In this document: positions 1,868 through 38,845 of the stretch, in pieces | How the letters are laid out: every line of letters begins with the position of its first letter | How positions within the stretch are numbered: position 1 is the first letter of the stretch | Assembly: GCA_040769165.1 (NCBI GenBank) | Contig: JAXGLP010000001.1 | Coordinates: forward strand, 1,451,702-1,515,701 | Direction: 5' to 3' | From: Armatimonadota bacterium | Lineage (GTDB): Bacteria; Armatimonadota; UBA5829; DSUL01 | DNA: 64,000 nucleotides | Notes under the pieces: model-generated | What the model was told of the DNA's origin: nothing | The model's database searches: none | What the model saw: only the letters and a program-made list of their open reading frames with translations | Program-made: the position numbers and the translations under genes

Positions 1868-2566
1868 ATGCGGATTCTACTGGTATCCGACGACGAGCGC
1901 TCCATAGCCGGGGTCCGGCGTGAACTGGTGCTGGCCAACCATCAGGTGCTCTGGTGCGCCAGCGACAGCGACTCGCTGGCGGATGCGCTGGCAGCCATGG
2001 CGCCCGAGGCGCTGGTGCTCGACATGGCCGGGTCCGGCCCCGGGGCACGCACAGTTCGCCAGAGACTCGAAAACGAGTTCGCAATCCCTCCCATGCCCAC
2101 ATTCGCCCTCATCCACAGCGAAGCTCTTCCCGACTTCGACCTGGCGTGGGGAGCGGACGACTTCGTGGTTGTCCCGGCGGCGGCCGGTGAACTGGCGGTC
2201 AGAATCCGGCTGCTCTTCTGGACGCAAAGCCGGATTCGCGAAGAGGGGTCTATCAGCTTCGGCGATCTGGTTGTGGATTTCGCGAACTACGAAGTGCGCG
2301 CCAGCAGCCGCGCGCTCGACCTCACATACAAGGAGTTCGAGCTTCTGAAGTATCTGGTAACCCACCGCAGCCGCGTGCATACCCGCGAGTCGCTTCTTGC
2401 CCGGGTGTGGGGCTACGACTACTTCGGAGGCGAGCGCACCGTCGACGTTCACATCCGCAGGCTTCGCGGGAAACTCGGCCCCGAGTACGCCGACGTCATC
2501 GAAACGGTTCGCGGAGTCGGCTACCGCTTCGCGCCCCCGCGGCGCACTGACGGAACAGAAGATTAA
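1868..2566 (+). CDS. OmpR/PhoB-family winged-helix response regulator, atypical receiver (GlnR-like orphan regulator)
   Basis: Receiver domain with DD pair (LLVSDDE) and candidate Asp (LVLDM), but no conserved Lys in the expected position (VVVPAAAG where KP is expected). C-terminal OmpR-type winged helix (TYKEFELLKYL...VDVHIRRLRGKL...VRGVGYRF). Lies directly upstream of amtB-glnK-glnD. Confidence 0.8.
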   Translation: MRILLVSDDERSIAGVRRELVLANHQVLWCASDSDSLADALAAMAPEALVLDMAGSGPGARTVRQRLENEFAIPPMPTFALIHSEALPDFDLAWGADDFVVVPAAAGELAVRIRLLFWTQSRIREEGSISFGDLVVDFANYEVRASSRALDLTYKEFELLKYLVTHRSRVHTRESLLARVWGYDYFGGERTVDVHIRRLRGKLGPEYADVIETVRGVGYRFAPPRRTDGTED

Positions 2567-2600
2567 CATCCCCGAAACACAGCCGTAACATCCGCACCCC
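2563..2600 (+). promoter_or_regulatory. Candidate GlnR-box-like tandem a-site/b-site repeat upstream of amtB
   Basis: TTAAC-n6-GAAAC-n6-GTAAC-n6-ACCCC, read directly from the sequence about 50 nt upstream of the amtB ATG. It resembles the actinobacterial GlnR box gTnAc-n6-GaAAc-n6-GtnAC-n6-GAAAc; the last b-site is degenerate. Confidence 0.3.
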
Positions 2601-2647
2601 AGAATGGCTGCAGGCTGGGGAGACCTCCGGCCCGCGGAGAGTTGCAG

Positions 2648-3886
2648 ATGGTGACGACAGACAGCGGCGATACAGCGTGGATGCTCGCATCCACGGCCAT
2701 GGTGATGCTGATGACACCCGGGCTTGCGCTGTTCTACGCAGGAATGGTGCGGGCGAAGAACGTGCTCGGGACTATGATGCACAGCTTTGTGATGCTCGGA
2801 ATGGTGGGGGTAACGTGGGTTCTGTGGGGCTATGGCCTCTCATTCGGTGGCGACGGAGCGCTGATTGGCAACCTGAGCTGGTTCGGGCTTGCCGGAGTCG
2901 GCGATCTTCCGAATGCGGATTACGCGCCGACTATTCCGCACTCGCTCTTTGCGATGTATCAGGGCATGTTCGCCATAATCACCCCCGCCCTCATCTCGGG
3001 AGCGCTCGCGGAGCGGATGCGATTCGGGGCATTTCTCTGGTTCATGGCGCTGTGGTCCACGGTTGTGTACACGCCAATCGCGCACTGGGTGTGGGGTAAT
3101 GGCGGCTGGCTGAGAACCCTTGGCGCACTCGATTTCGCGGGAGGCACGGTCGTTCATATATCATCGGGCAGCGCGGCTCTCGCCGGAGCAATACTGCTCG
3201 GACGAAGGTTGCGCCTCGGGCACGAGGACCTTGCTCCGCATAACGTCACGATGACGGTTCTGGGGGCGGCGATTCTCTGGTTTGGATGGTTCGGATTCAA
3301 CGCCGGCAGCGCGCTGGCCGCTAACGGCCTCGCGTCGGCGGCGTTCCTGACCACCAACACGGCGGCGGCGGCGGCGACACTGAGCTGGCTGCTCGCGGAG
3401 CGCATTCATACTGGCAAGGCGACGGCGCTGGGAGCGGCGTCCGGCTGTGTGGCGGGGCTGGTTGCCATCACCCCTGCAGCCGGTTTCGTTCCGGCGTGGG
3501 CCGCGGTTATCATAGGTTTTGTGGTGAGTTTCCTGAGCTACGGCGCCATCCGCCTCAAGACCAGGCTGCGCTATGACGACGCTCTGGACGTTGTGGCGGT
3601 CCATCTCACCGGAGGAGCGTTCGGCGCTCTGGCGACCGGGCTGTTTGCCTCCCGAGCCGTGAACCAGAACGGCGCCGACGGGCTTTTCGCCGGAGGGGGC
3701 TTCGCGCTTCTCGGGCGGCAGGCGCTTGCTGTGAGCGCAACTGCGGCCTTCTCGTTTCTGGTGTCGTGGGCAATACTGAGGGCTATCAGTCTTGCAGTCC
3801 CTCTGCGTCTTGACCGCGATGACGAGACCGTCGGGCTGGACCTGTCGCAGCACGGTGAAGTCGGCTACAATCTGGAAGCCGTGTGA
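2648..3886 (+). CDS. amtB: Ammonium transporter (Amt family)
   Basis: Typical Amt sequence (DTAWMLASTAMVMLMTPGLALFYAGMVR..., multiple TM segments). Start taken at ATG 2648, with GGAGAG 7 nt upstream; the track ORF begins at TTG 2642. Confidence 0.9.
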   Translation: MVTTDSGDTAWMLASTAMVMLMTPGLALFYAGMVRAKNVLGTMMHSFVMLGMVGVTWVLWGYGLSFGGDGALIGNLSWFGLAGVGDLPNADYAPTIPHSLFAMYQGMFAIITPALISGALAERMRFGAFLWFMALWSTVVYTPIAHWVWGNGGWLRTLGALDFAGGTVVHISSGSAALAGAILLGRRLRLGHEDLAPHNVTMTVLGAAILWFGWFGFNAGSALAANGLASAAFLTTNTAAAAATLSWLLAERIHTGKATALGAASGCVAGLVAITPAAGFVPAWAAVIIGFVVSFLSYGAIRLKTRLRYDDALDVVAVHLTGGAFGALATGLFASRAVNQNGADGLFAGGGFALLGRQALAVSATAAFSFLVSWAILRAISLAVPLRLDRDDETVGLDLSQHGEVGYNLEAV

Positions 3887-3930
3887 TCCCGGGCGCCGGC
3901 CCGGCGTGTTCATCTTGAAAGGACAGACAG

Positions 3931-4272
3931 TTGACCAAAGTCGAAGCGATCATACGCCCGAACAAGCTGGAGGACGTGAAAGCGGCGCTGGACGCGCTCG
4001 GAGTGCAGGGCATGACGGTAACGCACCTGATGGGCTCGGGCAAGCAGCGCGGGCGGACGCAGCACTACAGGGGACAGGAGTACGTCGTCAACCTCCTCGA
4101 CAAGACGAAGATCGAAACCGTTGTTTCGGACGATCAGGTGGACGAGATCGTCAAAGCCATCACAAAGGCGGCATCGACAGGCGAGATCGGGGACGGCAAG
4201 ATATTCCTGTCGCGCATTGACGACGCCATCAGAATCCGCACGGGCGAATCGGGCGACTCCGCCCTCAGGTAG
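3931..4272 (+). CDS. glnK: PII nitrogen regulatory protein
   Basis: 113 aa, MTKVEAIIRPNKLEDVKAAL...; T-loop with Tyr (HYRGQEY). TTG start with AAAGGA RBS. Immediately downstream of amtB. Confidence 0.9.
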   Translation: MTKVEAIIRPNKLEDVKAALDALGVQGMTVTHLMGSGKQRGRTQHYRGQEYVVNLLDKTKIETVVSDDQVDEIVKAITKAASTGEIGDGKIFLSRIDDAIRIRTGESGDSALR

Positions 4273-4378
4273 CCCGCGCCGCGGAGCCCGGAGCGTGTGA
4301 GCAGCCGCCCCGGATCCCGCGCACGATACCGCATTCACACAACAAGGGCTGCTCGGATAAGGACGGAAGAGTAAAGCA

Positions 4379-7006
4379 GTGGCAGGGCCCAAAGAAGCGC
4401 CTTATGATCAGTCTTGGATTGCACAGGCACGCAAGGACCTGACCTCTCTGGCCATGGTCGAAGACCTTGCCGATTTCGTCACCGCGCGACGGAGCGAGGT
4501 GATCGAGCGCGCGGCGGACCTGCCGGGCGAGGCGCGCACGCGCCTCCTGAGCGATCTGATTGACATGGTCGTTCGCCGCATGCTCGAAGTTGCCTGCGAG
4601 CCCACCGATTCCACGCCGAGCCTGCTTTCGCAGGCGGAACGATCGCTGTCTATTGTGGCGACAGGCGGCTACGGGCGGCGCGAACTGGCCCCGTTCAGCG
4701 ATGTGGATATCAACTTTATCGCCGCCTCCGAGGACGATCCGGAAGTCGACGCTATCACCCGGCGCATGTTCCGCCTCATTATGGATGTCCTGCTTTCGGG
4801 GGCGAAGCTGAAGGTCGGATATGCCTACAGGCTAGTCGGAGAAGCCGGTGCCCTGCACCACCAGAATCAGACAGCTCAGCTCGACGCGCGGTTTGTGGCC
4901 GGGAGCCGGGAGGTGTACCAGTCCTTTCAAGACGAGCTTCGCCGCAGCATCCAGCCTGTCGCCTTCATTCACGACAAGATGAAGGAGCGCGAGGCGGTTA
5001 TAGCCAGGCAGGGGACCTCGCTCTATCTTGTGGAGCCGAACATCAAGGAGGGCGAGGGCTCGCTGCGCGATCTTCAGCTCGCGGGTTGGCTGGCTCAGGC
5101 GGCGTACGGATTCGAGAGCCGAACCGTGTGGGAGGATATGCGCATGCACGGATTGCTTTCGACAGCCGAGACAGCCGAGGCCGCCGAGGCAAGGGAGTTC
5201 TTTTCGCGGTTGCGCTGGGAGATGCACGTTGCGGCGGGCAAGCAGGCGGACACACTGACAGTGCCAAAGCAGGAAAGCGCGGCGGCGAGTCTGGGATATG
5301 CGGACACCCCGGAGGAGTCCGGCGTCGAGAAGCTGATGCGCGACTACTACCGGCATGCCGAGGTGGCCCGGCGAACGGCAGAGAAGGTGGTGAGGCGGGC
5401 AACGGGGCTGCAGCTCGAACTCGAGCACGGCCTCGACGCAAGGGACGGCAGGATTATCCTGCAGAATCCCGAGGCGTTCCAGAACGATCCCGCGGCCTGC
5501 ATTCGCGCATTCGCATACTGCCAGCGCTATGGGCTCACCTTCGACCAGCCCGTGATTGACGCGATACGCGCGGCGACCGCGAGTTGCCCCGCGCCGATTC
5601 ACGACCCCGAAGCCGCGAAGCTGTTCCTTATGATTCTGGGCGGCGCCAACGTCGCCACGACGCTGACGAGCATGGCACACTGCGGGGTGCTGCAGTGGTT
5701 CGTTCCGGAGTTCGGGCGCGTTATGCGGCTGGTGCCGTATGATCCGGCGCACGAGTTCACGGTAGGATGGCATTCGCTCACGGTTGTGCAGCACTGCGAG
5801 CGCCTCGGCACGAGCGGCGACGAGGACATGCGCAGGCTGTACTCAACGCTTCGCCAGCCCGAACTGCTGTATCTGCTGGCGCTTGTGCACGACAGCGGCA
5901 AGGCCGTACGGGGCGAGGAGCATGCCGAATCCGGCGCCCGGATAGCGGCGATGGCCGGGAAGCGGCTCGGACTGGACACGGAATCCGTTGAACGGCTGCA
6001 GTTCCTCGTCCGCAATCACCAGCTTATGTCGGACACCGCGCGGCTGCGCGACCTGACACTGAGAAAGACGGTTGACGATTTCACGGCAGTCGTGGACGAG
6101 GTTGATACCCTCACGATGCTTTTCATCTTCACGAATGCGGACATTCTGTCTGTCGGTTCCAGGGCGTGGAGCGAGGTGCAGGGTCGTTTCCTGCGCGAGT
6201 TGTATTTCCGCGCGGAGCGCGCCATTCTCACCCGCGCCCCCATTTCCGACACGGACGAGGACATGGCTTTGCATCGCAGCAGAGTGCGGCGCGAACTCTC
6301 GATCACGTCCCTGCCCGAGAAAGCCGTCGACGAGCACATAGCCCTGATGCCCGCGATGTATCTCCTCAACACCGGCCCCGAGGAGATGGCCGCGCACATC
6401 GCCGCGATTCAGCGGGCTCGCAACGGGCAGCCCTCGGCTGACCTTCGCACGGAGCCGGGATCGGGCTTCACGGAACTCACCGTGTGCGCGCTGGACGACC
6501 CGGAGCCGGGCCTGCTTTCGAAGATTGCCGGGGCACTGTGGGCGATCGACGTAAATGTCCACGCGGCTCAGGTGTTCACCCGGAAGGGGCAGGACAAGGT
6601 CGCGCTCGACCAGCTCTATGTTGACTTCGAGGGCAAGCCCCTGCCCGAGTTCAAGAAGGCTCAGGTTGAGAAGGAGCTTACGGAAGTGCTGAGGGGCGAC
6701 CAGACCGTGCACGGGCTTCTCGCCGAGCGGAACAAGGAGCTGAAGCCCGACTACAGTTCGCTGTCGCTCGAGGTGCTGAACCATCTGTCTGAGCAGCACA
6801 CGGTCATTGAGGTGCACGCAAGCGATCAGCCGGGGCTGCTGTACCGGTTCACCCGCGCAATCGCCAGCCTGGGCTGGGATATTCATTCGGCGAGGGTGAG
6901 CACATGGGGCGCCGAAGCCCGGGACGCGTTTTACGTGACGGCTCGCGGCGGCAAACTGGGCCCCGACGCCGCCGATCGGCTCGAGGAGGCTCTGAAACGG
7001 GCCTGA
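4379..7006 (+). CDS. glnD: [Protein-PII] uridylyltransferase/uridylyl-removing enzyme
   Basis: 875 aa. N-terminal nucleotidyltransferase (GGYGRRELAPFSDVDINF), HD domain (HDSGK), two C-terminal ACT-like regions. GTG start assumed; the exact start is uncertain. Confidence 0.85.
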   Translation: MAGPKEAPYDQSWIAQARKDLTSLAMVEDLADFVTARRSEVIERAADLPGEARTRLLSDLIDMVVRRMLEVACEPTDSTPSLLSQAERSLSIVATGGYGRRELAPFSDVDINFIAASEDDPEVDAITRRMFRLIMDVLLSGAKLKVGYAYRLVGEAGALHHQNQTAQLDARFVAGSREVYQSFQDELRRSIQPVAFIHDKMKEREAVIARQGTSLYLVEPNIKEGEGSLRDLQLAGWLAQAAYGFESRTVWEDMRMHGLLSTAETAEAAEAREFFSRLRWEMHVAAGKQADTLTVPKQESAAASLGYADTPEESGVEKLMRDYYRHAEVARRTAEKVVRRATGLQLELEHGLDARDGRIILQNPEAFQNDPAACIRAFAYCQRYGLTFDQPVIDAIRAATASCPAPIHDPEAAKLFLMILGGANVATTLTSMAHCGVLQWFVPEFGRVMRLVPYDPAHEFTVGWHSLTVVQHCERLGTSGDEDMRRLYSTLRQPELLYLLALVHDSGKAVRGEEHAESGARIAAMAGKRLGLDTESVERLQFLVRNHQLMSDTARLRDLTLRKTVDDFTAVVDEVDTLTMLFIFTNADILSVGSRAWSEVQGRFLRELYFRAERAILTRAPISDTDEDMALHRSRVRRELSITSLPEKAVDEHIALMPAMYLLNTGPEEMAAHIAAIQRARNGQPSADLRTEPGSGFTELTVCALDDPEPGLLSKIAGALWAIDVNVHAAQVFTRKGQDKVALDQLYVDFEGKPLPEFKKAQVEKELTEVLRGDQTVHGLLAERNKELKPDYSSLSLEVLNHLSEQHTVIEVHASDQPGLLYRFTRAIASLGWDIHSARVSTWGAEARDAFYVTARGGKLGPDAADRLEEALKRA

Positions 7007-7032
7007 GCGGGCCCGGCCGAGAGGTTGGACTG

Positions 7033-7371
7033 ATGAAACTCGTGATGGCGGTCATCCGGCCGCACAAACTGCAGGAGGTGAAGAACGCCCTATCGGAGAT
7101 AGGCCTGGCAGGCCTGACTGTGACAGAAGTGCGGGGGCACGGAAGGCAACGCGGCCAAGTCGAGAAGTACCGCGGTCTTGAGTATTCAATCGATCTGCTG
7201 CCCAAAGTGAAAATCGAAGTTGTCTGCAGCGACTCTCAATCCGAGGACGTGATTGAGATCATCGTGCGCGCGGCAAGAACAGGCGAAGTCGGGGACGGGA
7301 AAGTATTCGTCCTCCCTGTCGAGGAGTCGGTAAGAGTCCGAACCGGCGACAGGGGTCCCGGGTCGCTCTGA
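7033..7371 (+). CDS. glnB: PII nitrogen regulatory protein
   Basis: MKLVMAVIRPHKLQEVKNALSEIGLAGLTVTEVRGHG...YRGLEY. Start at ATG 7033 inside track ORF 6904..7371. Confidence 0.9.
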   Translation: MKLVMAVIRPHKLQEVKNALSEIGLAGLTVTEVRGHGRQRGQVEKYRGLEYSIDLLPKVKIEVVCSDSQSEDVIEIIVRAARTGEVGDGKVFVLPVEESVRVRTGDRGPGSL

Positions 7372-7425
7372 GCCGTCAGCCGGCAGACACAAGAAGCAAG
7401 GATCGAAAGAAGGAAGAGACCAGCA

Positions 7426-8847
7426 ATGGCAACCACACCGGCAGAAGTTCTGCAGATGATCAGGGACGTCGAAGCGCGCATCGTTGACGTGCGCTTCACC
7501 GACCTCCCGGGCGTCTGGCAGCATTTTTCAATACCAGCAGAGGATCTGGACGAAGCGGCATTCGAGGACGGTCTGGGCTTCGATGGCTCCAGCATCCGGG
7601 GGTTCCAGGACATACAGGAGTCGGACATGACCCTGATGCCCGACCCGAACACCGCCTTCGAGGACACGATGGTGGAGCACCCCACCGTGGCGATTATCTG
7701 CAATGTCCACGACCCCGCCACCGGCGAACGCTACAGCCGCGATCCCCGCTTCATCGCCGCAAAGGCCGAGCAGTATCTGATGTCAACGGGAATAGGCGAC
7801 ACGAGCTACTGGGGCCCCGAAGCCGAGTTCTTTATCTTTGACGACGTCCGCTTCGGACAGACGGCGAACGCGGGTTTCTATTCGGTTGACTCGAGCGAAG
7901 GCATCTGGAACTCCGGCCGCGATGAAATGCCGAATCTCGGCTACAAGATCCGGCACAAGGAAGGCTACTTCCCCTGCCCGCCCATGGACAGCACCCACGA
8001 CCTGAGGAGCGAGATGCTCCTCGCGCTCAGAGACGCGGGTGTAGATGCCGAGATGCACCATCACGAAGTCGGGACGGGGGGACAGGCCGAGATAGACCTC
8101 CGCTACGACACGCTGTTGACGATGGCCGATAAGCTGATGAAGTACAGGTACATCGTCAAGAACATCGCCAACCAGCACGGCAAGACGGTGACGTTCATGC
8201 CCAAGCCCCTGTTCGAGGACAACGGGTCGGGCATGCATGTCCACTCGAGCATCTGGAAGGGCGGGCGCAACGTGTTCTGGGACGAGACCGGCTATGCGGG
8301 GCTTTCGGACACCGCGCGGTACTACATCGGGGGGATTCTGAAACACGCGCCTGCGCTTCTCGCTTTGTGCGCCCCCACGACGAACTCGTACCGCAGGCTC
8401 GTTCCCGGGTACGAAGCGCCGATCAACCTCGTCTATTCGCAGAGGAATCGCAGCGCGGCGGTGAGGATTCCGGCCTACCTGCAGAGCGAGAAATCGAAGC
8501 GGATCGAGTTCCGCTGCCCCGACCCCAGCGCGAACGGGTATCTGTGCCTGGCTTCGATCCTGATGGCGGGTCTGGACGGGGTCCAGAACAGGATTGATCC
8601 CGGCCAGCCGATTGACAAGAACATCTACGACCTGCCGCCGGAGGAATCGAAGACGATTAGAGGCACTCCGGGCGACCTGCATGAGGCGCTCAATGCCCTG
8701 GAGGCCGATCACGAGTTCCTGTTGAAGGGCGACGTGTTCACTCCAGACGTCATTGAGACCTGGATCGGCTACAAGCGAAAGAAAGAGGTGGACGCGGTGC
8801 GCCTGCGGCCGCACCACCACGAGTTCCATCTCTACTTCGACATCTAG
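7426..8847 (+). CDS. glnA: Glutamine synthetase type I
   Basis: 473 aa, canonical GSI sequence throughout. AAGGAAGAG RBS upstream. Confidence 0.95.
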   Translation: MATTPAEVLQMIRDVEARIVDVRFTDLPGVWQHFSIPAEDLDEAAFEDGLGFDGSSIRGFQDIQESDMTLMPDPNTAFEDTMVEHPTVAIICNVHDPATGERYSRDPRFIAAKAEQYLMSTGIGDTSYWGPEAEFFIFDDVRFGQTANAGFYSVDSSEGIWNSGRDEMPNLGYKIRHKEGYFPCPPMDSTHDLRSEMLLALRDAGVDAEMHHHEVGTGGQAEIDLRYDTLLTMADKLMKYRYIVKNIANQHGKTVTFMPKPLFEDNGSGMHVHSSIWKGGRNVFWDETGYAGLSDTARYYIGGILKHAPALLALCAPTTNSYRRLVPGYEAPINLVYSQRNRSAAVRIPAYLQSEKSKRIEFRCPDPSANGYLCLASILMAGLDGVQNRIDPGQPIDKNIYDLPPEESKTIRGTPGDLHEALNALEADHEFLLKGDVFTPDVIETWIGYKRKKEVDAVRLRPHHHEFHLYFDI

Positions 8848-8863: not shown

Positions 8864-8898
8864 TCGAGGAGGCGCGCTCTTTCGAGCGCGCCTCCTCC
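8864..8898. terminator. Bidirectional rho-independent terminator between convergent glnA and the GH42 gene
   Basis: Inverted repeat GAGGAGGCGCGCTC-TTTC-GAGCGCGCCTCCTC seen in the sequence. Confidence 0.5.
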
Positions 8899-11028
8899 TC
8901 ATGCCAGCCAGTAGCCCTCAACGGCGCGCCCCGGAAGCGCGAACTCCAGCCAGCCCCCGCCTGCGCGCGGCTCCGGCTCGTCTCCCAGAAACCCAGACAC
9001 CTGCCCGGAAGCCTTCAGACGGATGACCGCGCGCTCTTCCGATTCGTTCGACACGACCAGGAACCTGCGCGTATCCGCCTGCAGGATATCGGCCCGGCCG
9101 GGCCCCTCGACCAGAACGTCCGGATCTCCAATGCTTTCGCGCACAAGCTCGGCGATGAGATCACCGCAGGCCCCACCGTCCGGCTGAGACGCGCTGTACG
9201 CGAGGGGCGCTCCGGCCAGAAGCGCCCCGCCCTCCCCACTGCGCATCCGGGTTATCGCCGCGCCACCGTTCGGGAGAACGCCAAGGACTTCCGCTTCGCC
9301 CTCGTACTCGGAAACTGCGACGCACACGGGAATGGCGGTCCCGGCGGCCAGACCCCCGACATGGCGGGAAAGTCGAATGGCAAGCCCGCGGCCGCGGCCT
9401 TCGGCCGCCTGCATCATCGCATACGCGTCGAACCCGGTCGTGAGCGGCCAGGTCATGCGTTCGCGGCATCCGAAAAGCTGGTCCAGGCCCATCCCCGGCG
9501 TGACCGTGGAGTGCAGGCTCCGCGCGCTGTCGTAAGCGGCCGGCCAGATCTCGGACACCACTGATCCCCCACGCCTGACGTAGTCACCAAGGGCGCCCGC
9601 GACAGGCTCCGCAAGCCAGTACGGCACGGGCAGATAGAGGCAGCGATACTGCTGATGCAGCCCTGCCGCGAAGTCGGACGGGTGCACGAAATCCACCTGG
9701 TACCCCGCCCGCGCCAGGGCCCGGTACGCGCCGTCAAGGCTTCTCGAATAGAGATCACCCGCAAGGGTACCCGCCCAGCAGAAGATCTGGTTCTCCGGGT
9801 CGGCGAGTAGCGCGGCCTTAGCGGGAAGCGGGCTGGCGGCGAGGAAGAACTCCTCATCGGCAAGCAGGGCGCGCGCGATATGAGACGCAGGCTCAAGCCA
9901 CGGGGCCGGACTGCCGTCAGGGTTGGTCAGCCCCCACGCGGGCGATTCCCCGCCCAGCCTCTCCGGACGATACTGCCAGAACAGAAAGCCCTTGATGCCG
10001 TGCGCGAGCGGGATGAGGATGTGCCGCTTCATCTCAGCGCTCCCAATCGGTCGCGGTCGCGAGAAGGCGCCGCCGGGAAGCGCATGGATCTCCGCGTTGA
10101 TGACCGCCTTTCCCCGAGCCGCGCTGCGGAGCAGATCGGCCGCGAACGGGTCGGAACCAACGCTGTTGCCATGCAGGTCGCCCGGCTCCGCAAGCAGCCA
10201 GTCATCGGACCCGCAGGAAACAAGCGGGAAGATGGGAGGAGGCACGGTGTGGCACACGACCGGATGAACCGTGTCCCACCGCCGGACAGCCTCCTTGCGT
10301 CTCAGCAGTTCGTCCCGCATCGTCTCGGCGAAGAAGAGCCGCCAGTCCATGAAGTCGCGGTAGGTCTGCGGCTGGATGGGCAGTTCCACTTCATCCCACG
10401 ACTGGTAGTTCCGGCTCCACACGCGATTCAGAGTATCCAGCGACGAGTATCGGAGATGGAGCCAGTCGAGGAAGGCAGCGCGCGAACTCGGGCAGGTGCA
10501 GACGAGATCCTCGATCTTCGGCTCGCGCAGGAGACCCACTGTCAGCTCGGGCTCGTTCCACAGGTCCCAAAACGCCAGCGCGGGATGAGGGCCCAGCGCC
10601 TTCGCGGCCTCCTCTACAAAGCGCACCGAGTGTTCCACGGCGGCCTGATGGTGCAGGCAGTGCCCGGGCACGCCGCCGATCTGGCGATACGGTGTGGTTA
10701 CGGGCCCGAGGACCCGCCCATCAGCCGTTACCATGCGGCAGTCCGGATACGCCGCGAACAGCCACGCGGGAGCGCAGTCCATAATCAGGTTGACCACGAC
10801 GCGGAGCCCGTGAGCCTGCGCGGTGTCAAGGAGCAGAGTAAGATCGCTGAAATCGAAGCGGCCCTCGGCCGGGTTGTTCCAGCGCCACTGCGCCCAGACC
10901 TTGATCGTGTTGAATCCCGCGTCGCGCATTCGCCGCAGGTCGGCGTCCCATTCTTCGGGAAGCGGCGTCGGGGCACGGTAATACTGCGCGCCGAATGGCA
11001 TAAACGATAGTATGCGGTTCATGCTCAT
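8899..11028 (-). CDS. Glycoside hydrolase family 42 beta-galactosidase-like
   Basis: 709 aa. N-terminal (beta/alpha)8 region with QYYRAPTPLPEEWDADLRRMRDAGFNTIKV and WNEPE catalytic-acid motif, typical of GH42. Confidence 0.7.
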   Translation of the reverse strand: MSMNRILSFMPFGAQYYRAPTPLPEEWDADLRRMRDAGFNTIKVWAQWRWNNPAEGRFDFSDLTLLLDTAQAHGLRVVVNLIMDCAPAWLFAAYPDCRMVTADGRVLGPVTTPYRQIGGVPGHCLHHQAAVEHSVRFVEEAAKALGPHPALAFWDLWNEPELTVGLLREPKIEDLVCTCPSSRAAFLDWLHLRYSSLDTLNRVWSRNYQSWDEVELPIQPQTYRDFMDWRLFFAETMRDELLRRKEAVRRWDTVHPVVCHTVPPPIFPLVSCGSDDWLLAEPGDLHGNSVGSDPFAADLLRSAARGKAVINAEIHALPGGAFSRPRPIGSAEMKRHILIPLAHGIKGFLFWQYRPERLGGESPAWGLTNPDGSPAPWLEPASHIARALLADEEFFLAASPLPAKAALLADPENQIFCWAGTLAGDLYSRSLDGAYRALARAGYQVDFVHPSDFAAGLHQQYRCLYLPVPYWLAEPVAGALGDYVRRGGSVVSEIWPAAYDSARSLHSTVTPGMGLDQLFGCRERMTWPLTTGFDAYAMMQAAEGRGRGLAIRLSRHVGGLAAGTAIPVCVAVSEYEGEAEVLGVLPNGGAAITRMRSGEGGALLAGAPLAYSASQPDGGACGDLIAELVRESIGDPDVLVEGPGRADILQADTRRFLVVSNESEERAVIRLKASGQVSGFLGDEPEPRAGGGWLEFALPGRAVEGYWLA

Positions 11029-11967: not shown

Positions 11968-14900
11968 CTATCTGATGTCCCTGGGCCGTATGGCGGCTTC
12001 ACCTGCCGCATCCAACCCGACCCACCCCGGCTTTGCCACGACAACGATGTCTGACTGGGTCCTCGGCAGGAGCGTACTCACCAGATAGGTCTTGTACGCC
12101 TCACAGCTCGAGATGCCTGTAACCACGACAGCCACCCCCGCAGCAGGAATCTCCATCTCAGGCGCCCAGACAAACACGCCGCGGGTGCCTGTGCCGTCCG
12201 AAACGCCGCTTCCGTCGTCAATGTAGAACCAGTCCCGCCCCTTCAGCGTAACCACTCCGGACGTCTGGATCAGGAGGCCGATGTTGTTCAGACCGAGGCC
12301 TTTGCGTATGCCCCGCTGTGCCACGGAACCTCCAACCATCCAGTCTTCGCCACCAATGTATCCGCCGCGCATGAATACGGGGACTATGTCACCCAGTCCG
12401 GATTGCCTGGCCGCGGCAGCGGCGATGAACCGCTCACCGTCCTCATTAGTGCTGAGTTTTCCGACGATGTCGGCGCGCATGCCTGTGTCTAATGCGTGCC
12501 CATCGAGGTGTACGCGGATGCCGGCATTCCGCCCTTCGTCCTCGACATAGAAGACACCTGGCGCCGCATAGGTTACAGGAAGGCCCTGCAGAAAGACCGG
12601 CGCCCCGTCGGGTTTGGCCTTCCCTTCCGAGAGGGGCATGCCAGATGCACGCACCAGCCCGAATTTTGCCTGCGGTACCACAGCACCCAGCGCGCCTGCC
12701 GGACTTGTTCCGCACCAGGTGAGGGGGTCACCCGCCCCACTATCTGAATGATAGACAAGAGACCTGTTTCCCCCGGGCGAGAAGGCACAGACAAGACCAT
12801 TGCTCGTATAGTCCGTGCTGTTGTGCGAGAAGTCCACGATGAGGTTGTCGTTGCCGTTGTAATCAAACGGAGTGGTGAACGTGAACGTCTTCCAGCCGGT
12901 GGCGGATACCGTCTCACTGGCGGCCTGATACACCGTTGTCCACGGCGTGCATTCCCATGCCGCCGTGGCGTAGGAAGAAGCTGTTGTGTGCTTCATCCGG
13001 ATGTTCCAGTTATCCAGCGTCTGACCCGGAAGCTGCGAGATGTTCAGCGCCAGCGAGACTATCGTCGACGGACCCGCCCCAAGCTCCGATGCGAGGTATA
13101 TTACCTGTGTCCTGGAGTCGTGATACAAGGTGTGCAGCGGGTAGCTCCAGGTCGAGTCACACGTACCGACGGTGATTGTCGAAGGAGTCGTGAACGTGTA
13201 GCACTGGCCCCCGTTGTCGGCGAGCGTGCTGTTGCCGGGCGCATCCGCCGCCTCAACGACGAAGAAGTACTCAGTCTCCCGAGCGAGCCCTTCAACGGTG
13301 ATCGAGTGCGCCGTCGCCAACGACGTCTCACTCTCAACTACCGTATAGGGGCCTCCACAGACTGTACCGACCTTCACGACTCCGATAGCCGGCTCATCGG
13401 TGGTGAACGTGATCACCACGCCAACCTCTTCGGGCAGGCTGGAAATGGCGCTGATCACAGGACCAGCGCAGTCCAGAGATGCAGAACGCGTCTTCGTGAC
13501 GTTCGTGCCGCCCGTACCGTCATCGGCATCAAGATAGGTTACGGACAGCGTCCCCTGATGCGCAGTCTGCAGGGTTCCATCCTCGGGCCCCGCTTCTCCC
13601 GAACCTGTGGAAAGCGGACTCTCCGCATTGCTGAAGACGCCAGGAGTGGCCGGGACTTCGGCAAGAATGACAGTCTCCAGGTCACCGGCGGAACTCTCCG
13701 CGGTCACAGTGGCGGCGCCCATCCCTGCAAGGCCGGCATCTCGCAGCTCTATCACAACATGGTCAGCGCACGAGTAGATATCCCTGTCCAGCGCCAGACG
13801 TCCATCGGAAGGATGGAACCCGGCACTCCCGCTCAATGCCATCAGGACTGACGGCTCAGTCTCGTCGCTGCTCGCGATCACGAGAGTCCCCTCGTATTCG
13901 CCCACGGCGTCCGGCTGGAACTTCACATCGAATGTCACCGGGTCCCCTCCCGCCGGTATGGTGAACGGTGTTGCGGGCAGATTCTCCACGGAGAACACGT
14001 CACCGGCTGCCATTGCCGCGATGTCGGGCTGTTTGGGCAGAATCGGGCCCGGATACACGGGCCTGTCGCCCTCAGGAACGGCGTCAGGCGACAGCTCGCC
14101 TCCGAACGGGTGCGCGCAGTACCACTCCTGTTCCGCGGACATGACGTGGTCTGCCTCAATCGGTGGATCGAGCACGACATTGTCAAAATAGTCGTGCTTC
14201 ACTTCAGCTCCTCTGTAGGCGAATAGACCGATCCGGCCGGGACCGGCAAGACCTGAATCCGTCCCGCTCCACGCCAGGTTGCCGTTGAAGTACACCCGTA
14301 TCTGCGACCCCTGGAAGCTCACGTTCACAAGGTTGGGGGCCTCGCCCGTGGCAAGGTAAGGCGAAGACGTCCAACCGCCACTCAGCCAGGTCTCAGTGCT
14401 TCCGATGAATCGGATCACCCAGAACAAGCCTTGTGCGTTGATACCCACACCGTAAGCACTTCCCACTCCTCCATCGTAGACGAAATCATCCGAGCAGCGG
14501 AAGCACAGGCCCGACACGTAGCTTGTGTATCCGGTTCTGCGAAGGGTGACACTGAGGGACCCGTCTGCCCATTGATCCCCCGCATATAGCGACTGATAGG
14601 ACTGTCCGGAGGCCGTACTGTAGGCACTGTACTCACCCTGCAGGACGGTCCATGTGGGCGGTGGCAGCGGCTCCCATCCCTGAGCGGCCCCGTCTTCGAA
14701 GTCCTCCCGGTACTGGGCACCCGAAATACGCACATTGGAGACCTCCAGATCACCCCGTCCCGTGTTTGCTATCGTCACATGCTCGGTGCGCGCGTTATTG
14801 ATGAATACGGGACCGAAGGGCAGTTGGAGGTCATCCGCGGGCGGCAGGCTGTCCGTTACTTCGATCTCCGGCTGGAGGGGAATCACGTGTAGACTGACCA

Positions 14901-17900
14901 CACGAATCCAGTGGTGCTGAGTTGTCATGTTGGAGAACCGCACCTGTGCAGAGTAGTCCCCGGCTGTCAGGGCATTCACATCCGCTGTCAGAGACACCCT
15001 GACGGTAGCACTCTCACCCGGTGCCAGTACGCCGCCGGCCTGGCTGCACGCAGCCAGCCTCGAGCCCGAGACCGCAGCCCAGGTGAGCGCCTCGGTCCCC
15101 ATATTCTGGAGCGTATAGTCCGCCCCGTCCGGAATGAATGGTCCGCCCACCTGTCCGGTACTGGTGAATCCACTGGAAGGGGAAACCCTGAGCGCGTCGG
15201 CCGGCTCCACACCGAGCCGCAACTGTGGCACCTGTGTGCCCAGGGCGCCAGCCGGGGAACTGCCGCACCATGTGAGGGGGTCACCCGCTCCGCTATCTGA
15301 CTGATAGACAAGTGACCTGCTACCTCCCGGCGAGAAGGCACAGACCAGGCCGTTGCTCGTATAGTCCGTGCCGTTGTGCGAGAAGTCCACAATCAGATTG
15401 TCGGAACCGTTGTACTCGAACGGCGTGGGGAATGTGAACGTCTTCCAGCCGGTTGAGGTTACAGGATAACTGGAAGCCTGAAACACGGTTGTCCACGGCG
15501 AGCACTCCCACAACGCCGATGTGAACGAGGACGCGGGAGTGTGCTTCATCCGGATGTTCCAGTTATCCAGGGCCTGTCCCGGGATCTGTGAAACGTTCAG
15601 AGACAGTGAGGTAATCGTCCAGGGAGCCCCTCCAAGTTCCGAGGCAAGGTAGATTACCTGTGTCCTGGAGTCTTCATAGTAGGTATGCAGCGGGTAGCTG
15701 AACGTTGTGGCGCATGTGCCAACGGTTATTGTGGACGCAGTCGTAAACGGGTAGCACTGGCCGCCGTTGTCATCCGTCGCCACAGTGCCAACCACATCGG
15801 TTGCCTCCACAACGAAAACATAGCCAGTGGCGGGACTCAGCCCTGTCAGTTCAACCGTGTGCGCGGTGCCCCAAATCGGGTCCTCTGCTGCGATGATTTC
15901 CGGCCCACCGCAGACCATGGAGCAGTGCACGCGGCCCAGAGTGGGAACATTGGTGGCAAAGGTGACCGTTGCCGCCACACCGCTACTGGCATTCACGGCC
16001 ACATTCGTAATTGATATCGGCCTGCAGTCCGCAGTGGCCGTATCGGTCTTCGTCTCAGGCAGCCCGCTTCCATTATCAGCATCCTCGTACGAAGCTGTGA
16101 TCAACGCGCCGTCGCCAATCTGAAGAACCCCGTCGCCCTGCACGGGTTCTGCACCGGCCGTTTCTACCTGTCCCGCGAACACGCCCGGCTCTGGCGTCTC
16201 CGCAAGCGTCACAGTCTCTGTATCCCCTGTCGAACTGGAGACAGTCACAGGACATTCTCCGGCAGCCGCAAGATCGGAGTCGAGCACCTTGACAGAGACC
16301 GGCTCGCCACAGCGGTAGGTGACCTTGTCGAGCATGACCACCCCATCGGCCGACGCGCTTACGAGATTGCAGGCGACCAGCGCAAAATCCTGGTCGGTCG
16401 CATCAGCATTTCCCGGAACACCGTCACCACCAATCGAGACACCACGAACGACGATGTCAACAGCGCCGCTGGTCCCGGCGGGCAGCCGCACCAGTTCGTA
16501 GTTGTTGCGTACATCCGGCGCGCCGCCTGTCTGTGAGACATCCTTGTTGAAGACGTTTCCACGGTACAGGACGCCGTCCACGTACACCTCGAGATCAAGA
16601 TTGTTGACGTAGGCAGCCCCGGACAGCGCGCCCGGAGGGTCAGTCCACGCCAGAGACACTACCAGAGGTTCGCCCCCATCAGCCACAACCCCGCCAAGAT
16701 GGTATTGCTCCCCCGGCCCGGTGAGAATCTCCGTCTGGTCAACGACCTTCCTCGGCCTCGCTGCGTCGAAAGCGAAAGCGAGGTTGATGATCCCGAATCC
16801 CTGGCTGTTGCTGGGGAAGTTGTCGTTGGCGTAGAGCCCGGTCATGTGCCGCCCGGAATGAATGATGTAGGCCTTGAGCAGGGCCGGGCTTGGCTCGGCG
16901 ATACCGTACGTCCGCGAAAGGAAGTTATAAACGAGGGAACCGCAACCGGCCGCCGCCGGACACGAGTGGCTCGTTCCCGACGACCAGCAGTACAGAGTCT
17001 GCCCCGCTGGCATGTACTTGTCACAGACGCTGTCGCCAGTGTAGGCCGGGCTGGTAGATGTTGATGCCGCACCCTGAATGTGGGTGCCTGGCGCCTGGAT
17101 CTCCGGCTTGGCGCGGCCATCGTCGCACGGTCCACGGCTGGAGAAGTCTATGACGTCCTGCGCGTTGTTCGCCCCTGATGGTGGAACGTCGCAGCCATCT
17201 GTTATGCCGAGAGTATCGTAGTTCTCGCTGGCGCCGACCGAAATGACGTTCTTCCCGGTGGCGGGGCTGCCGATGCTGTACGACCCTGACCCTTCGTTTC
17301 CAGCGGAGAAGAAGAAGGCCATGGGCTGCTGTCCGGTAACCGTGGGCTGGCAGTCCCGGACAAAGCTATCGTACATCTGCGAGTCCGACGTGTAGTCGCC
17401 ATAGGCGTCAGTACCCCAGGAGTTGCTGCTGATGCGAACTCCCCACGCATACTGGCTGCTGACCATTGCAGCCTCGTTGATCGAAGACGGCCACAGTCCG
17501 CTATCAGAGAACACCTTGGTATGAGCCATCCTGCCGTAGGGCGAGATGCCCAGGCCGTAGTGGAACCCTGCCGCATCCTGAAACGGAGAGCCAGTGCTGT
17601 TGTTGCAGCCGCCCACAATGGAGGTATTGATGTTTCCGTGCCCGTCAACGCCGTTCGGGTTGGTGATCGTTGGAGACCCGCCGGGCGCAATTCCGGCAAA
17701 CACGACGCGTGAAGCAAGAGCGGGATCGCCCAGTTGCCTGAACTCGGAATTTCCCGGTGACGAGGCATTGCCGTTGTCAAAACCATCGTCAGTGACCACA
17801 ACAACGGGGTAGGCTTCAGGATCCGTTGGGAATCCGTACGATTCGAGGAAGGACAGGTAGCCAGGCCCGGTTGGCGCCGTCCTGCCCGCGTTGAGATTGT

Positions 17901-18792
17901 CGGCGAGGATCTGACCCTGCCGCTCGCAGTTGAGGTGTTTCTCGAGATACGGCTCTATCCACACCACCCCCGGCACAGCCGCCAGAGACTCCAGCAGACT
18001 GCCTGCGATTTCTATGGAGACGTTGATATATCGTCCGCTCAGAACCTCGCGCGGCGGAACGATAACAGACTGTGCATCCGCGGCGATCTGGTCTGCCGCC
18101 TGGACGGCATCCTCGCCGTAGTTGAAAACCTGCACGGTGACCCGGACAGGATCCTCCTTGCCACAGGCTTCATCCAGAGCGGGGCTCAGCGCAAACCACG
18201 GATGATACTCACCAACAAAGGCCGTGTAAGGCTCGGACAGGAGCGCTGATGCGAGTCCGGGGGACGACGCTTCGTCAACCCATATGAGATAGGCGTTTTG
18301 TGGAATGTAGTGGACAATGCTGGCCCCCACGGACTTGAGAAGGGCGAGGTCCTCGTCCACAGGCGGCGCGACAAATTGAACCAGCATCAGCCGGCTCTTC
18401 GCCTCAGAGCTGGCCGTCAGGCGTTCGGGCAACGCGAATTCGGGCTTGCGCGTATCTATCTTTTGGCGGCGCAGTTCAATGAAGTTGAAGTCTTCGCGCA
18501 CCACGGCGCCAGTGCTGTTCTCAAGCGTGGACTTCAGACTTGCCGGGGCTTCGTACACCAGATAGGAGTCGCGGCGCGCCAGCAGCTTCGCCCCGGCGGC
18601 ATCCAACCGCGTGATGTCTGCCCGGGCATCGGCCGACACCAGAACACGGACTTTCGTGTCCTGGTCCTCCCCGGCAATCGCCGGCCCAAACGCAACCGCG
18701 AACAGGAAAGCACACGAAAGAGCAAACGCCAGACGATAGCGCTTGCTAGACTTCCAGTAACCGAAGCACTCGACCAAACCGTTGGTCTTCAT
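11968..18792 (-). CDS. Giant secreted subtilisin-like serine protease (peptidase S8), 2274 aa, carrying the shared C-terminal module
   Basis: Signal peptide plus propeptide. S8 catalytic triad motifs VVTDDGFD (Asp), DGHGNINTS (His), SGTSHSCPAAAG (Ser). Then FN3-like and beta-sandwich repeats. C-terminal ~200 aa shared with six other proteins. AAGGAGGGGG RBS. Confidence 0.85.
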   Translation of the reverse strand: MKTNGLVECFGYWKSSKRYRLAFALSCAFLFAVAFGPAIAGEDQDTKVRVLVSADARADITRLDAAGAKLLARRDSYLVYEAPASLKSTLENSTGAVVREDFNFIELRRQKIDTRKPEFALPERLTASSEAKSRLMLVQFVAPPVDEDLALLKSVGASIVHYIPQNAYLIWVDEASSPGLASALLSEPYTAFVGEYHPWFALSPALDEACGKEDPVRVTVQVFNYGEDAVQAADQIAADAQSVIVPPREVLSGRYINVSIEIAGSLLESLAAVPGVVWIEPYLEKHLNCERQGQILADNLNAGRTAPTGPGYLSFLESYGFPTDPEAYPVVVVTDDGFDNGNASSPGNSEFRQLGDPALASRVVFAGIAPGGSPTITNPNGVDGHGNINTSIVGGCNNSTGSPFQDAAGFHYGLGISPYGRMAHTKVFSDSGLWPSSINEAAMVSSQYAWGVRISSNSWGTDAYGDYTSDSQMYDSFVRDCQPTVTGQQPMAFFFSAGNEGSGSYSIGSPATGKNVISVGASENYDTLGITDGCDVPPSGANNAQDVIDFSSRGPCDDGRAKPEIQAPGTHIQGAASTSTSPAYTGDSVCDKYMPAGQTLYCWSSGTSHSCPAAAGCGSLVYNFLSRTYGIAEPSPALLKAYIIHSGRHMTGLYANDNFPSNSQGFGIINLAFAFDAARPRKVVDQTEILTGPGEQYHLGGVVADGGEPLVVSLAWTDPPGALSGAAYVNNLDLEVYVDGVLYRGNVFNKDVSQTGGAPDVRNNYELVRLPAGTSGAVDIVVRGVSIGGDGVPGNADATDQDFALVACNLVSASADGVVMLDKVTYRCGEPVSVKVLDSDLAAAGECPVTVSSSTGDTETVTLAETPEPGVFAGQVETAGAEPVQGDGVLQIGDGALITASYEDADNGSGLPETKTDTATADCRPISITNVAVNASSGVAATVTFATNVPTLGRVHCSMVCGGPEIIAAEDPIWGTAHTVELTGLSPATGYVFVVEATDVVGTVATDDNGGQCYPFTTASTITVGTCATTFSYPLHTYYEDSRTQVIYLASELGGAPWTITSLSLNVSQIPGQALDNWNIRMKHTPASSFTSALWECSPWTTVFQASSYPVTSTGWKTFTFPTPFEYNGSDNLIVDFSHNGTDYTSNGLVCAFSPGGSRSLVYQSDSGAGDPLTWCGSSPAGALGTQVPQLRLGVEPADALRVSPSSGFTSTGQVGGPFIPDGADYTLQNMGTEALTWAAVSGSRLAACSQAGGVLAPGESATVRVSLTADVNALTAGDYSAQVRFSNMTTQHHWIRVVSLHVIPLQPEIEVTDSLPPADDLQLPFGPVFINNARTEHVTIANTGRGDLEVSNVRISGAQYREDFEDGAAQGWEPLPPPTWTVLQGEYSAYSTASGQSYQSLYAGDQWADGSLSVTLRRTGYTSYVSGLCFRCSDDFVYDGGVGSAYGVGINAQGLFWVIRFIGSTETWLSGGWTSSPYLATGEAPNLVNVSFQGSQIRVYFNGNLAWSGTDSGLAGPGRIGLFAYRGAEVKHDYFDNVVLDPPIEADHVMSAEQEWYCAHPFGGELSPDAVPEGDRPVYPGPILPKQPDIAAMAAGDVFSVENLPATPFTIPAGGDPVTFDVKFQPDAVGEYEGTLVIASSDETEPSVLMALSGSAGFHPSDGRLALDRDIYSCADHVVIELRDAGLAGMGAATVTAESSAGDLETVILAEVPATPGVFSNAESPLSTGSGEAGPEDGTLQTAHQGTLSVTYLDADDGTGGTNVTKTRSASLDCAGPVISAISSLPEEVGVVITFTTDEPAIGVVKVGTVCGGPYTVVESETSLATAHSITVEGLARETEYFFVVEAADAPGNSTLADNGGQCYTFTTPSTITVGTCDSTWSYPLHTLYHDSRTQVIYLASELGAGPSTIVSLALNISQLPGQTLDNWNIRMKHTTASSYATAAWECTPWTTVYQAASETVSATGWKTFTFTTPFDYNGNDNLIVDFSHNSTDYTSNGLVCAFSPGGNRSLVYHSDSGAGDPLTWCGTSPAGALGAVVPQAKFGLVRASGMPLSEGKAKPDGAPVFLQGLPVTYAAPGVFYVEDEGRNAGIRVHLDGHALDTGMRADIVGKLSTNEDGERFIAAAAARQSGLGDIVPVFMRGGYIGGEDWMVGGSVAQRGIRKGLGLNNIGLLIQTSGVVTLKGRDWFYIDDGSGVSDGTGTRGVFVWAPEMEIPAAGVAVVVTGISSCEAYKTYLVSTLLPRTQSDIVVVAKPGWVGLDAAGEAAIRPRDIR
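12660..13800 (-). repeat. Internal duplicated unit 2 of the S8 protease gene (approx. aa 1665-2045)
   Basis: Second copy '...ITFTTDEPAIGVVKVGTVCGGP...NLIVDFSHNSTDYTSNGLVCAFSPGGNRSLVYHSDSGAGDPLTWCG'. About 65-70% aa identity to unit 1 by eye. Confidence 0.6.
15210..16350 (-). repeat. Internal duplicated unit 1 of the S8 protease gene (approx. aa 815-1195)
   Basis: Protein segment '...DGVVMLDKVTYRCGEPVSV...VTFATNVPTLGRVHCSMVCGG...NLIVDFSHNGTDYTSNGLVCAFSPGGSRSLVYQSDSGAGDPLTWCG' recurs about 850 aa downstream. The antisense track ORFs 14988..15392 and 12573..12917 share 'WTSRTTARTIRA'. Coordinates approximate. Confidence 0.6.
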
Positions 18793-38776: not shown

Positions 38777-38840
38777 CAGTTCCGAAGCGAACTGACTGAT
38801 TCGAATGAGGGGCCCGGAGCGGAAACGCTCCGGGCCTTCT
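36450..38840 (+). repeat. Near-identical ~2.4-kb direct repeat, copy A (paralog 1 body plus terminator)
   Basis: Identical track ORFs at 36552..36842 and 42233..42523 give an offset of 5681 bp. The protein alignment shows roughly 15 substitutions over ~760 aa. Boundaries approximate. Confidence 0.8.
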
Positions 38841-38845
38841 TTCGT
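38809..38845 (+). terminator. Rho-independent terminator after paralog 1
   Basis: GGCCCGGAGCG-GAAA-CGCTCCGGGCC followed by TTCTTTCG. Confidence 0.7.

Follow-up and report, generated by a model that had tools for sequence, protein, structure and literature searches.

Gene content of the locus

We analysed a 64-kb stretch of DNA from an Armatimonadota bacterium (contig JAXGLP010000001.1), referred to here as the window, whose positions supply all coordinates unless another locus is named. At 1868-8847 the window carries six genes, all on the + strand, which the open reading frame (ORF) listing together with Pfam and NCBIfam profile scans (the basis of all family assignments below) identify as genes for an OmpR-type regulator, the ammonium channel AmtB, a PII protein, the PII-modifying enzyme GlnD, a second PII protein and glutamine synthetase (GS). 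An earlier interpretation made from the letters alone (the sequence-only reading) had described the locus as six co-directional genes, regulator-amtB-glnK-glnD-glnB-glnA, headed by a GlnR-like regulator, and all six were recovered in that order with family assignments to match. The evidence presented here concerns chiefly the regulator and the short stretch from the last codons of its gene to amtB, in which we found four phased half-sites resembling the binding element of actinobacterial GlnR.

The regulator gene (1868-2566) encodes a GlnR-like orphan protein of the OmpR/PhoB type, 232 amino acids (aa) long, which scores 95 bits on Trans_reg_C (PF00486) and 36.7 bits on GlnR_1st (PF21695). It is followed by amtB (2648-3886; 420 bits on Ammonium_transp and 458 bits on TIGR00836), for which the ORF listing gives a TTG start at 2642; we prefer the ATG at 2648, as it has a GGAGAG Shine-Dalgarno sequence ahead of it and agrees with the alignment of relatives. 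The gene glnD (4379-7006) encodes a PII uridylyltransferase/uridylyl-removing enzyme with nucleotidyltransferase (GlnD_UR_UTase), HD and ACT domains, scoring 530 bits on TIGR01693 (cut-off 519), and its GTG start at 4379 is backed by N-terminal alignment with relatives. GlnD reaches 530 bits on the general and alphaproteobacterial-type models versus 303 on the actinobacterial-type model PRK03381. The last gene of the block, glnA (7426-8847), encodes a type I GS (658 bits on TIGR00653) with the adenylylation-type tyrosine motif NIYDLP.

The two PII genes lie on either side of glnD, at 3931-4272 (P-II, 110 bits) and 7033-7371 (P-II, 106 bits). Their products are ~47% identical and both have the T-loop residue Tyr51 (in RGQEY and RGLEY, respectively). 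For the second gene a longer ORF from 6904 overlaps glnD, and the PII match begins at residue 44 of this ORF i.e. at 7033. The sequence-only reading had named the pair glnK and glnB; the existence of two PII paralogues stood, while the distinction between them is based on gene position only, as both proteins score slightly higher on the GlnK model of NCBIfam. From the regulator to glnA the gaps between successive genes are 81, 44, 106, 26 and 54 nt; the 81-nt gap between the regulator and amtB houses the predicted promoter, and the other five genes are separated by 26-106 nt.

Conservation of the block in close relatives

The exact regulator protein is encoded on a 2.35-Mb contig at NCBI and on many contigs from metagenomes. 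Its named close relatives, with 74-80% regulator identity, are all from metagenome-assembled genomes labelled 'Armatimonadota bacterium', and one of them (BCW97372.1, 80% identical) has already been annotated automatically as 'transcriptional regulatory protein GlnR'. These close relatives were not among the matches listed in our genome and metagenome scans and were fetched individually. We compared the window with six diverged relatives (L167, L168, L169, L170, L176 and L177). The full block, regulator-amtB-PII-glnD-PII-glnA, is present in L167, L168, L169 and L170; the contig of L177 breaks off in the first part of the gene after glnK, and up to there the order is unchanged. L176 (2781-8681) has the regulator, PII, glnD, PII and glnA without amtB, and keeps the half-site array right past the stop codon of the regulator. 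The flanks vary, with an upstream gene that is usually DUF6785 (a BNR gene in the window) and downstream genes for CheW, an M48 peptidase or GH42. Because the gene order is kept in six relatives while the flanking genes differ, the block is a selected unit rather than a chance adjacency.

A GlnR-like regulator with an atypical receiver domain

The best sequence matches of the regulator in the PDB were Saccharopolyspora erythraea GlnR (8hig, 160 bits), Mycobacterium tuberculosis GlnR (8hih, 146 bits) and the S. erythraea DNA-binding domain (8hml, 135 bits), and the next response regulator after the GlnR entries was RegX3, with 90 bits. Of these reference structures, 8HIH is the complex of GlnR with RNA polymerase (RNAP) and 8HML/8HIG contain the DNA-binding domain with DNA; 8HIH and 8HML are identified as GlnR in PMC10235972. 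An AlphaFold model of the regulator (predicted local distance difference test score 89.4) gave the chains of M. tuberculosis GlnR as its best Foldseek matches, and its DNA-binding domain, a GlnR-type winged helix, aligned with the S. erythraea GlnR domain with a root-mean-square deviation of 1.2-1.3 Å and 61-66% identity. Domain-wise BLAST put the DNA-binding domain at 56-67% identity to actinobacterial GlnR versus 35-45% to canonical regulators. Over its full length the regulator is 39-44% identical to actinobacterial GlnR, with up to 56% in segments covering only the DNA-binding domain. When the DNA-contact residues of M. tuberculosis GlnR (as listed in PMC10235972) were mapped by hand from the PDB alignment, 13 of the 14 were identical in the regulator, the lone mismatch being N214, which is replaced by Gly. 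NCBIfam models for PhoB, MtrA and YycF gave alignments that were full length yet below threshold. We also built a neighbour-joining tree (Kimura distances, with bootstrap), whose deep nodes are poorly supported, and in it all of the regulators that lack the receiver lysine were placed apart from the canonical ones. Orthology of the regulator to actinobacterial GlnR is plausible.

Alignment of the receiver domain with canonical OmpR/PhoB proteins (E. coli PhoB and OmpR and the canonical paralogues from the fetched loci) showed that D8, D9 and D52 are kept. The conserved lysine is replaced by V102 ('DDFVVVP' versus the canonical 'DDYxxKPF'), and the position of the conserved threonine is occupied by H83 ('LIHSE' aligned to the canonical 'LTAR'). 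Both replacements hold throughout the clade formed by the window and its close relatives, and the acidic pair and the aspartate are strictly conserved in the whole clade (as SDDERS and xDxxGS). The lysine is also missing in the best 120 homologues from a collection of 5.8 billion proteins, with P0015 and P0045 as possible exceptions (both have an IKG motif whose alignment at the lysine position is uncertain). Judging by these homologues, atypical regulators resembling GlnR form a large family that spans several phyla. The regulator did not match the Response_reg profile (PF00072) even at E<=10, whereas PhoB, OmpR and a Streptomyces paralogue used for calibration scored 104-115 bits. On GlnR_1st its 36.7 bits (cut-off 27) constitute a weak match compared with the 140-149 bits of actinobacterial GlnR, and other non-actinobacterial relatives of the regulator score 20-36 bits. 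An acidic pocket without the Thr and Lys partners suggests a non-canonical input to this receiver.

Next to the regulator, the gene on its 5' side (338-1846) encodes a BNR/sialidase-like protein rather than a kinase, and ends 21 nt before glnR. A search of the window, covering every ORF of 100 aa or more that does not overlap another, found no histidine kinase (HisKA/HATPase), NtrB/NtrC, RpoN or GlnE; this result applies to the window and not to the genome. In the six relatives no kinase adjoins the regulator gene. A sigma-54-type promoter pattern (TGGCAC-N5-TTGCW, with at most 2 mismatches) matched 16 times in the window versus 28.5 expected, and none of the matches fell within 1868-8847. With its Thr and Lys replaced, no PF00072 match and no kinase in the window, the regulator departs from a canonical response regulator.

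What the sequence-only reading had said of this protein is supported by these results. Its likeness to GlnR is upheld by the PDB matches, the GlnR_1st match and the DNA-binding domain; the DD pair, the candidate phospho-aspartate and the missing lysine are all seen in the alignment, to which the loss of the threonine is a new addition. The protein does not group with ordinary OmpR/PhoB regulators in the tree (bootstrap at the node joining it to GlnR being 39%), the gene immediately upstream is not a cognate kinase, and the statement that ntrB/ntrC and a sigma-54-type glnA promoter are absent holds for the window.

A phased four-site array in front of amtB

Four half-sites phased at 11 bp and resembling a GlnR double box lie on the + strand at 2552-2589: GGAAC (2552-2556), TTAAC (2563-2567), GAAAC (2574-2578) and GTAAC (2585-2589). 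The array begins within the last codons of the regulator gene, and TTAAC overlaps the glnR stop codon. Exactly 10 nt past the last half-site is a predicted -10 hexamer, CAGAAT (2600-2605, + strand), for a promoter of the amtB operon, whose transcription start would lie near 2612; no good -35 hexamer was found at this promoter (GAAACA/ACACAG). With a spacer of 17-18 bp from the -10, the -35 position coincides with GAAAC 2574-2578 or adjoins it, and GTAAC 2585-2589 is in the spacer; counted from the predicted -10, the two proximal half-sites reach from about -38 to -23. The actinobacterial GlnR element consists of a-sites (gTnAc) and b-sites (GaAAC) 6 nt apart, with typically four sites per promoter (PMC10235972; PMC5826061). 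In the structure of M. tuberculosis GlnR with RNAP on the amtB promoter, four protomers are arranged head-to-tail around the -35, with site b2 downstream of the -35 (PMC10235972). As read from the sequence, the geometry of the array and its predicted -10 is that of the actinobacterial GlnR double box.

An equivalent phased array is found at the same place in the six relatives, with four sites in five of them and three in L176. GAAAY-N6-GTAAC is present in the regulator-amtB spacers of all clade loci, with a hexamer resembling TAnnAT exactly 10 nt further on, and the -10 position in the relatives reads TAGCAT, TACCAT, CACAAT, TATCAT or similar. The only exact match to GWAAY-N6-GWAAC in the whole window falls within the array. 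A position weight matrix (PWM) for the tetramer gave the array a score of 26.4 versus 5.3 for the next independent site in the window. With a PWM trained on the sites of the relatives only, the window array scored 25.6, compared with a maximum of 19.7 over 200 dinucleotide shuffles and a mean of 2.3 for the per-shuffle maxima, and in every clade locus no other tetramer scores as high as the four-site array. Across both strands of the clade loci (132 kb) the strict two-site pattern was matched 7 times versus ~0.7 expected, and 7/7 of these matches are on the sense strand directly 5' of amtB or glnR. The two-site (dimer) box alone is not significant in 64 kb (1 versus 0.29 expected, with shuffles reaching similar scores), and the weight of the argument therefore rests only on the four-site array and its conserved position. 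The GlnR-type regulon unit put forward by the sequence-only reading gains support from this array. A generic sigma-70 scan also picked out a TTAACA/TAACAT pair inside the array, which we take to be a by-product of the repeats and not a promoter.

Boxes are also present ahead of the regulator gene itself in four of the relatives (L167 8219-8234, L169 9949-9964, L170 1027-1042 and L177 4402-4428). Each comprises one to one-and-a-half boxes and is followed after N10-N11 by TAGAAT, TACAAT or TATGAT, which suggests that the regulator gene of these relatives is autoregulated. In the window this box has been lost, the DUF6785 gene being replaced there by the BNR/sialidase-like gene. A PWM scan found no boxes ahead of glnA, glnD or glnR in the window.

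Two further sequence features mark the distal part of the block. A conserved leader, ATCGAAAG-AAGGAAG, lies just 5' of glnA (7402-7416, + strand), and six clade loci (the window, L167-L170 and L176) have a ATCGAAAGGAAC-like block 10-25 nt ahead of the start codon of glnA; it is probably the ribosome-binding region. A glutamine riboswitch or another known leader RNA before glnA was considered and rejected, as an Rfam scan of the whole window, the glnA leader included, matched 0 families. Downstream of glnA, a perfect 14-bp GC-rich hairpin read directly from the sequence, GAGGAGGCGCGCTC-TTTC-GAGCGCGCCTCCTC (8866-8897), takes up the space left between glnA and the GH42 gene that converges on it. 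This hairpin, which has no T-run, is likely to be the 3' end of the operon and would probably act as a bidirectional terminator.

Distribution outside the clade

A scan of GTDB species genomes with the regulator returned, among the matches listed, mostly GlnR of Actinomycetota, together with proteins from Armatimonadota, Dehalococcoidales and Omnitrophota. In a Dehalococcoidales locus of the Chloroflexota (L011, 403-3642) a GlnR-like regulator, which keeps the receiver Lys unlike the window protein, adjoins amtB-PII-glnA, and between the regulator and amtB there is a four-site array (1119-1156) followed by N10 and TAAAAT. Another Armatimonadota locus (L174), whose regulator is 42% identical, has a four-site array 5' of glnA (10959-10996) followed by N10 and TAGAAT, and an Acidimicrobiales genome has TTCAC-n6-TTCAC-n6-GCAAC-n6-GAAAC 5' of a glnA next to glnR. 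GlnR-like genes lie beside glnA-like genes in L007, L087, L121 and L179. In the last of these, likewise from Chloroflexota (Dehalococcoidia; 1994-5045), the regulator is followed by glnA and then by a second regulator with a Trans_reg_C domain only; no cleanly phased box was found in L179. The high-scoring sites in L007 (Armatimonadota) lie between unrelated minus-strand ORFs and were set aside as not interpretable. With L175 and L178 as exceptions, the tie of the GlnR-like regulator to nitrogen genes is frequent and not universal.

A contig labelled 'Candidatus Sericytochromatia' (L068) was considered as evidence for an additional phylum and rejected. Its GlnR motifs (WGLDDILLPGTGP, at L068 5545-6024) are identical to those of Mycobacteriales GlnR, and on this basis it is probably a mis-binned actinobacterial contig.

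Comparison with known systems

The closest known counterpart of the system is the GlnR of actinobacteria (Streptomyces, Mycobacterium, Saccharopolyspora and Amycolatopsis), the one group in which, as far as is known, this nitrogen switch has been studied by experiment. The two share their domain architecture, the lack of an adjoining kinase and a receiver without Lys in which the central Asp is kept; their DNA-binding domains are similar to the extent given above, with nearly all of the DNA contacts the same. They also share gTnAc/GaAAc half-sites 6 nt apart, four of them at the amtB promoter with the proximal one downstream of the -35, and amtB-glnK-glnD and glnA as targets, with boxes before the regulator gene in the relatives of the window. 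The window system differs in its host phylum, Armatimonadota rather than Actinomycetota, in the much lower PF21695 score of its regulator, and in a receiver that has D8/D9, a His at the Thr position and no Arg at D+2 (two residues past the Asp). Its regulator gene is directly ahead of the target operon, and the stop codon of this gene falls within the box; the amtB-glnK-glnD operon continues into glnB and glnA, with glnA lacking a box of its own; and its GlnD is not of the actinobacterial subtype. We regard the locus as a GlnR-type system with variant features i.e. the phylum, the divergent receiver, the position of the regulator directly before its target, and the fusion of amtB-glnK-glnD with glnB-glnA.

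PhoB with its Pho box in Enterobacteria, and PhoP with its PHO boxes in Streptomyces, have the same OmpR/PhoB fold, an almost identical recognition helix (RTVDVHIRRLR) and direct repeats of 11-bp periodicity that replace the -35 and end ~10 bp before the -10. PhoB is, in contrast, a canonical, phosphorylated regulator of phosphate genes with an adjacent kinase, PhoR, and a Response_reg score of 104 bits; its repeats are of the TGTCA/GTTCA type, and the window regulator is only 35% identical to it. Helicobacter HP1043 (PDB 2HQR; rank 41 in Foldseek), one of the phosphorylation-independent orphan regulators of the OmpR family, likewise combines the OmpR/PhoB fold with a receiver that has degenerated, and it too is without a partner kinase, but its Foldseek identity is 21% versus 37-39% for GlnR, and its targets and DNA motifs are unrelated. 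Textbook nitrogen clusters include glnK-amtB pairs, the actinobacterial amtB-glnK-glnD, and glnB-glnA in many Proteobacteria, with control by NtrBC and sigma-54. The window has the same five structural and signalling genes in the same pairings (amtB with PII, and PII with glnA), but unlike these clusters it has all five in one block behind a regulator, with a single recognisable regulated promoter.

A model for control of the locus and its alternatives

We consider it likely, on the evidence of the sequence, that an orphan GlnR-type activator drives amtB to glnA as one operon. In this model the regulator is a non-canonical orphan of the OmpR/PhoB type whose DNA-binding domain is that of a GlnR-type protein. 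It would bind head-to-tail, probably as four protomers, along the array at 2552-2589, where four half-sites resembling G(T/A)AAC recur every 11 bp. The two proximal sites would cover the -35 position and the spacer and end 10 nt ahead of the -10, as in the M. tuberculosis GlnR activation complex, and because of this correspondence binding most likely stands in for the absent -35, activating amtB-glnK-glnD-glnB-glnA as a single unit to the 8866-8897 hairpin. The GlnD/PII pair and AmtB would add post-translational control, as Tyr51 is present in both PII paralogues and the GS has an adenylylation-type Tyr. Gene content, the atypical receiver, the likeness to GlnR, the phased sites with their conservation and position, and the synteny are observed; binding, activation rather than repression, the single transcript and the response to nitrogen limitation are the parts of this model that we infer.

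Several observations weigh against the model or some part of it. The receiver scores 23-34 bits by BLAST to actinobacterial GlnR receivers and much the same to canonical receivers (23-35 bits over both groups), and because of this roughly equal distance it is the DNA-binding domain that carries the relationship to GlnR. The D8/D9/D52 triad is retained, whereas actinobacterial GlnR is without the acidic pair. The Arg at D+2 is absent, the window having LDMAGS and its clade IDLPGS/IDFPGS where actinobacterial GlnR has VDARTD; through this residue (Arg52) the GlnR homodimer forms a charge network focused on the Asp (Lin et al. 2014, via PMC10704036). The neighbour-joining tree pairs the clade with a group made up of the actinobacterial proteins and a few unnamed lineages, at a bootstrap of only 39%, and the regulators of L175 and L178 are not next to nitrogen genes. 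There is no box ahead of glnR in the window. Nor does one precede glnA, and the 106 nt between glnK and glnD would leave room for an internal promoter, so that the transcript may not be a single one. The two distal half-sites overlap the end of the glnR coding sequence, and their conservation may in part reflect coding constraint; the array as a whole is not explained in this way, because in L168 it lies in wholly intergenic DNA. Finally, the placement of sites over the -35 and spacer could also mean repression.

This last point leads to an alternative in which the regulator is a repressor that blocks RNA polymerase at the amtB -35/spacer under nitrogen excess, with autorepression in the relatives. 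The proximal half-sites do occupy a position at which many regulators repress, and actinobacterial GlnR represses some of its targets (review PMC10704036). However, the amtB promoter is without a usable -35, as is typical of activator-dependent promoters. PhoB-type activators use direct repeats that replace the -35 and end ~10 bp from the -10, which also weighs against repression. In the structure of GlnR with RNAP at the amtB promoter (PMC10235972), moreover, the same geometry, with b2 downstream of the -35, is that of activation, and we regard the repressor as unlikely. Somewhat less likely again is that the protein is an ordinary two-component regulator whose kinase is encoded elsewhere and which is phosphorylated at D52 through the D8/D9/D52 site, with the likeness to GlnR confined to its DNA-binding domain. 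The strict conservation of SDDERS and xDxxGS in the clade, the BLAST result for the receiver and the full-length, sub-threshold alignments to PhoB, MtrA and YycF would all fit such a regulator. Against it, both Thr and Lys are replaced (H83, V102) across the clade, there is no Response_reg match where canonical proteins exceed 100 bits, no kinase is found in the window or beside the gene in the six relatives, and the best 120 homologues, save P0015 and P0045 with their uncertain alignment, are likewise without the Lys.

The block might alternatively have been transferred recently from an actinobacterium, in which case it would say nothing about Armatimonadota or about an older origin. That actinobacteria classically have these genes in the order amtB-glnK-glnD (PMC10704036 and related papers), and that the best characterised relatives of the regulator are actinobacterial, would be accounted for by such a transfer. 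We nevertheless find it very improbable, given that full-length identity to actinobacterial GlnR is only 39-44% with the clade lying outside the actinobacterial clade in the tree, that GlnD scores far better on general and alphaproteobacterial-type models than on PRK03381, that other Armatimonadota lineages and Dehalococcoidia hold their own diverged versions with the same box, and that GC content is uniform across the window.

With orphan GlnR-type activation of the operon as the preferred model, a more speculative extension can be proposed, in which the locus is a self-contained feedback module i.e. the pseudo-receiver (the SDDERS/D52 pocket without Thr and Lys) would read nitrogen status by directly contacting one or other of the two PII proteins, or GlnD-modified PII, that the regulator itself induces. 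We give this extension a low probability. We know of no description, for a GlnR-type regulator, of PII-based control analogous to PII-PipX-NtcA, GlnK-TnrA or GlnK-AmtR. It appears more probable than this feedback that Armatimonadota, Dehalococcoidia and Actinomycetota have the GlnR-type regulator, the four-site box and its promoter geometry in common, and that these are older than the actinobacteria or extend across the limits of that phylum.

Other features of the window

Elsewhere in the window there are several genes for large proteins. At 36272-44457 (+ strand) three paralogues in tandem encode proteins of 834, 889 and 867 aa, in which Pfam recognises nothing beyond a FlgD_ig domain at the N-terminus; identity is 95.7% between the first and the third, and ~80% between the middle protein and either of these. 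The trio has the appearance of large genes of surface-protein type that were recently duplicated in tandem. A 2274-aa protein encoded at 11968-18792 (- strand) combines a subtilase (Peptidase_S8) domain with Ig-like/fn3-like repeats, and further large secreted-looking proteins with CarboxypepD_reg, fn3 or GHL10 domains are encoded at 32616-35945 and 54470-56839. At 45672-49267 (- strand) there is an SbcC/SbcD-like nuclease pair (SMC_N/AAA_23 and metallophosphoesterase), upstream of which (49271-52305) are two ORFs without a Pfam match.

Significance

OmpR-type GlnR is treated in the searchable papers as the global nitrogen regulator of actinobacteria, and in the searchable literature, subscription-only literature aside, we found no paper linking it to Armatimonadota or Dehalococcoidia. 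What is conserved outside the actinobacteria comprises the GlnR-type protein, the four-site DNA element and a promoter geometry with a site downstream of the -35. The locus also places a regulator, its promoter, the channel, both PII proteins, GlnD and GS within 7 kb, which would make it a handy cassette for reconstituting the signal input of an orphan GlnR-type protein. These results indicate that the GlnR circuit is not confined to actinobacteria, which may come as little surprise to a specialist, and they provide a testable regulatory model for a poorly known phylum. They suggest that the GlnR-type circuit is older, or more mobile, than has been assumed.

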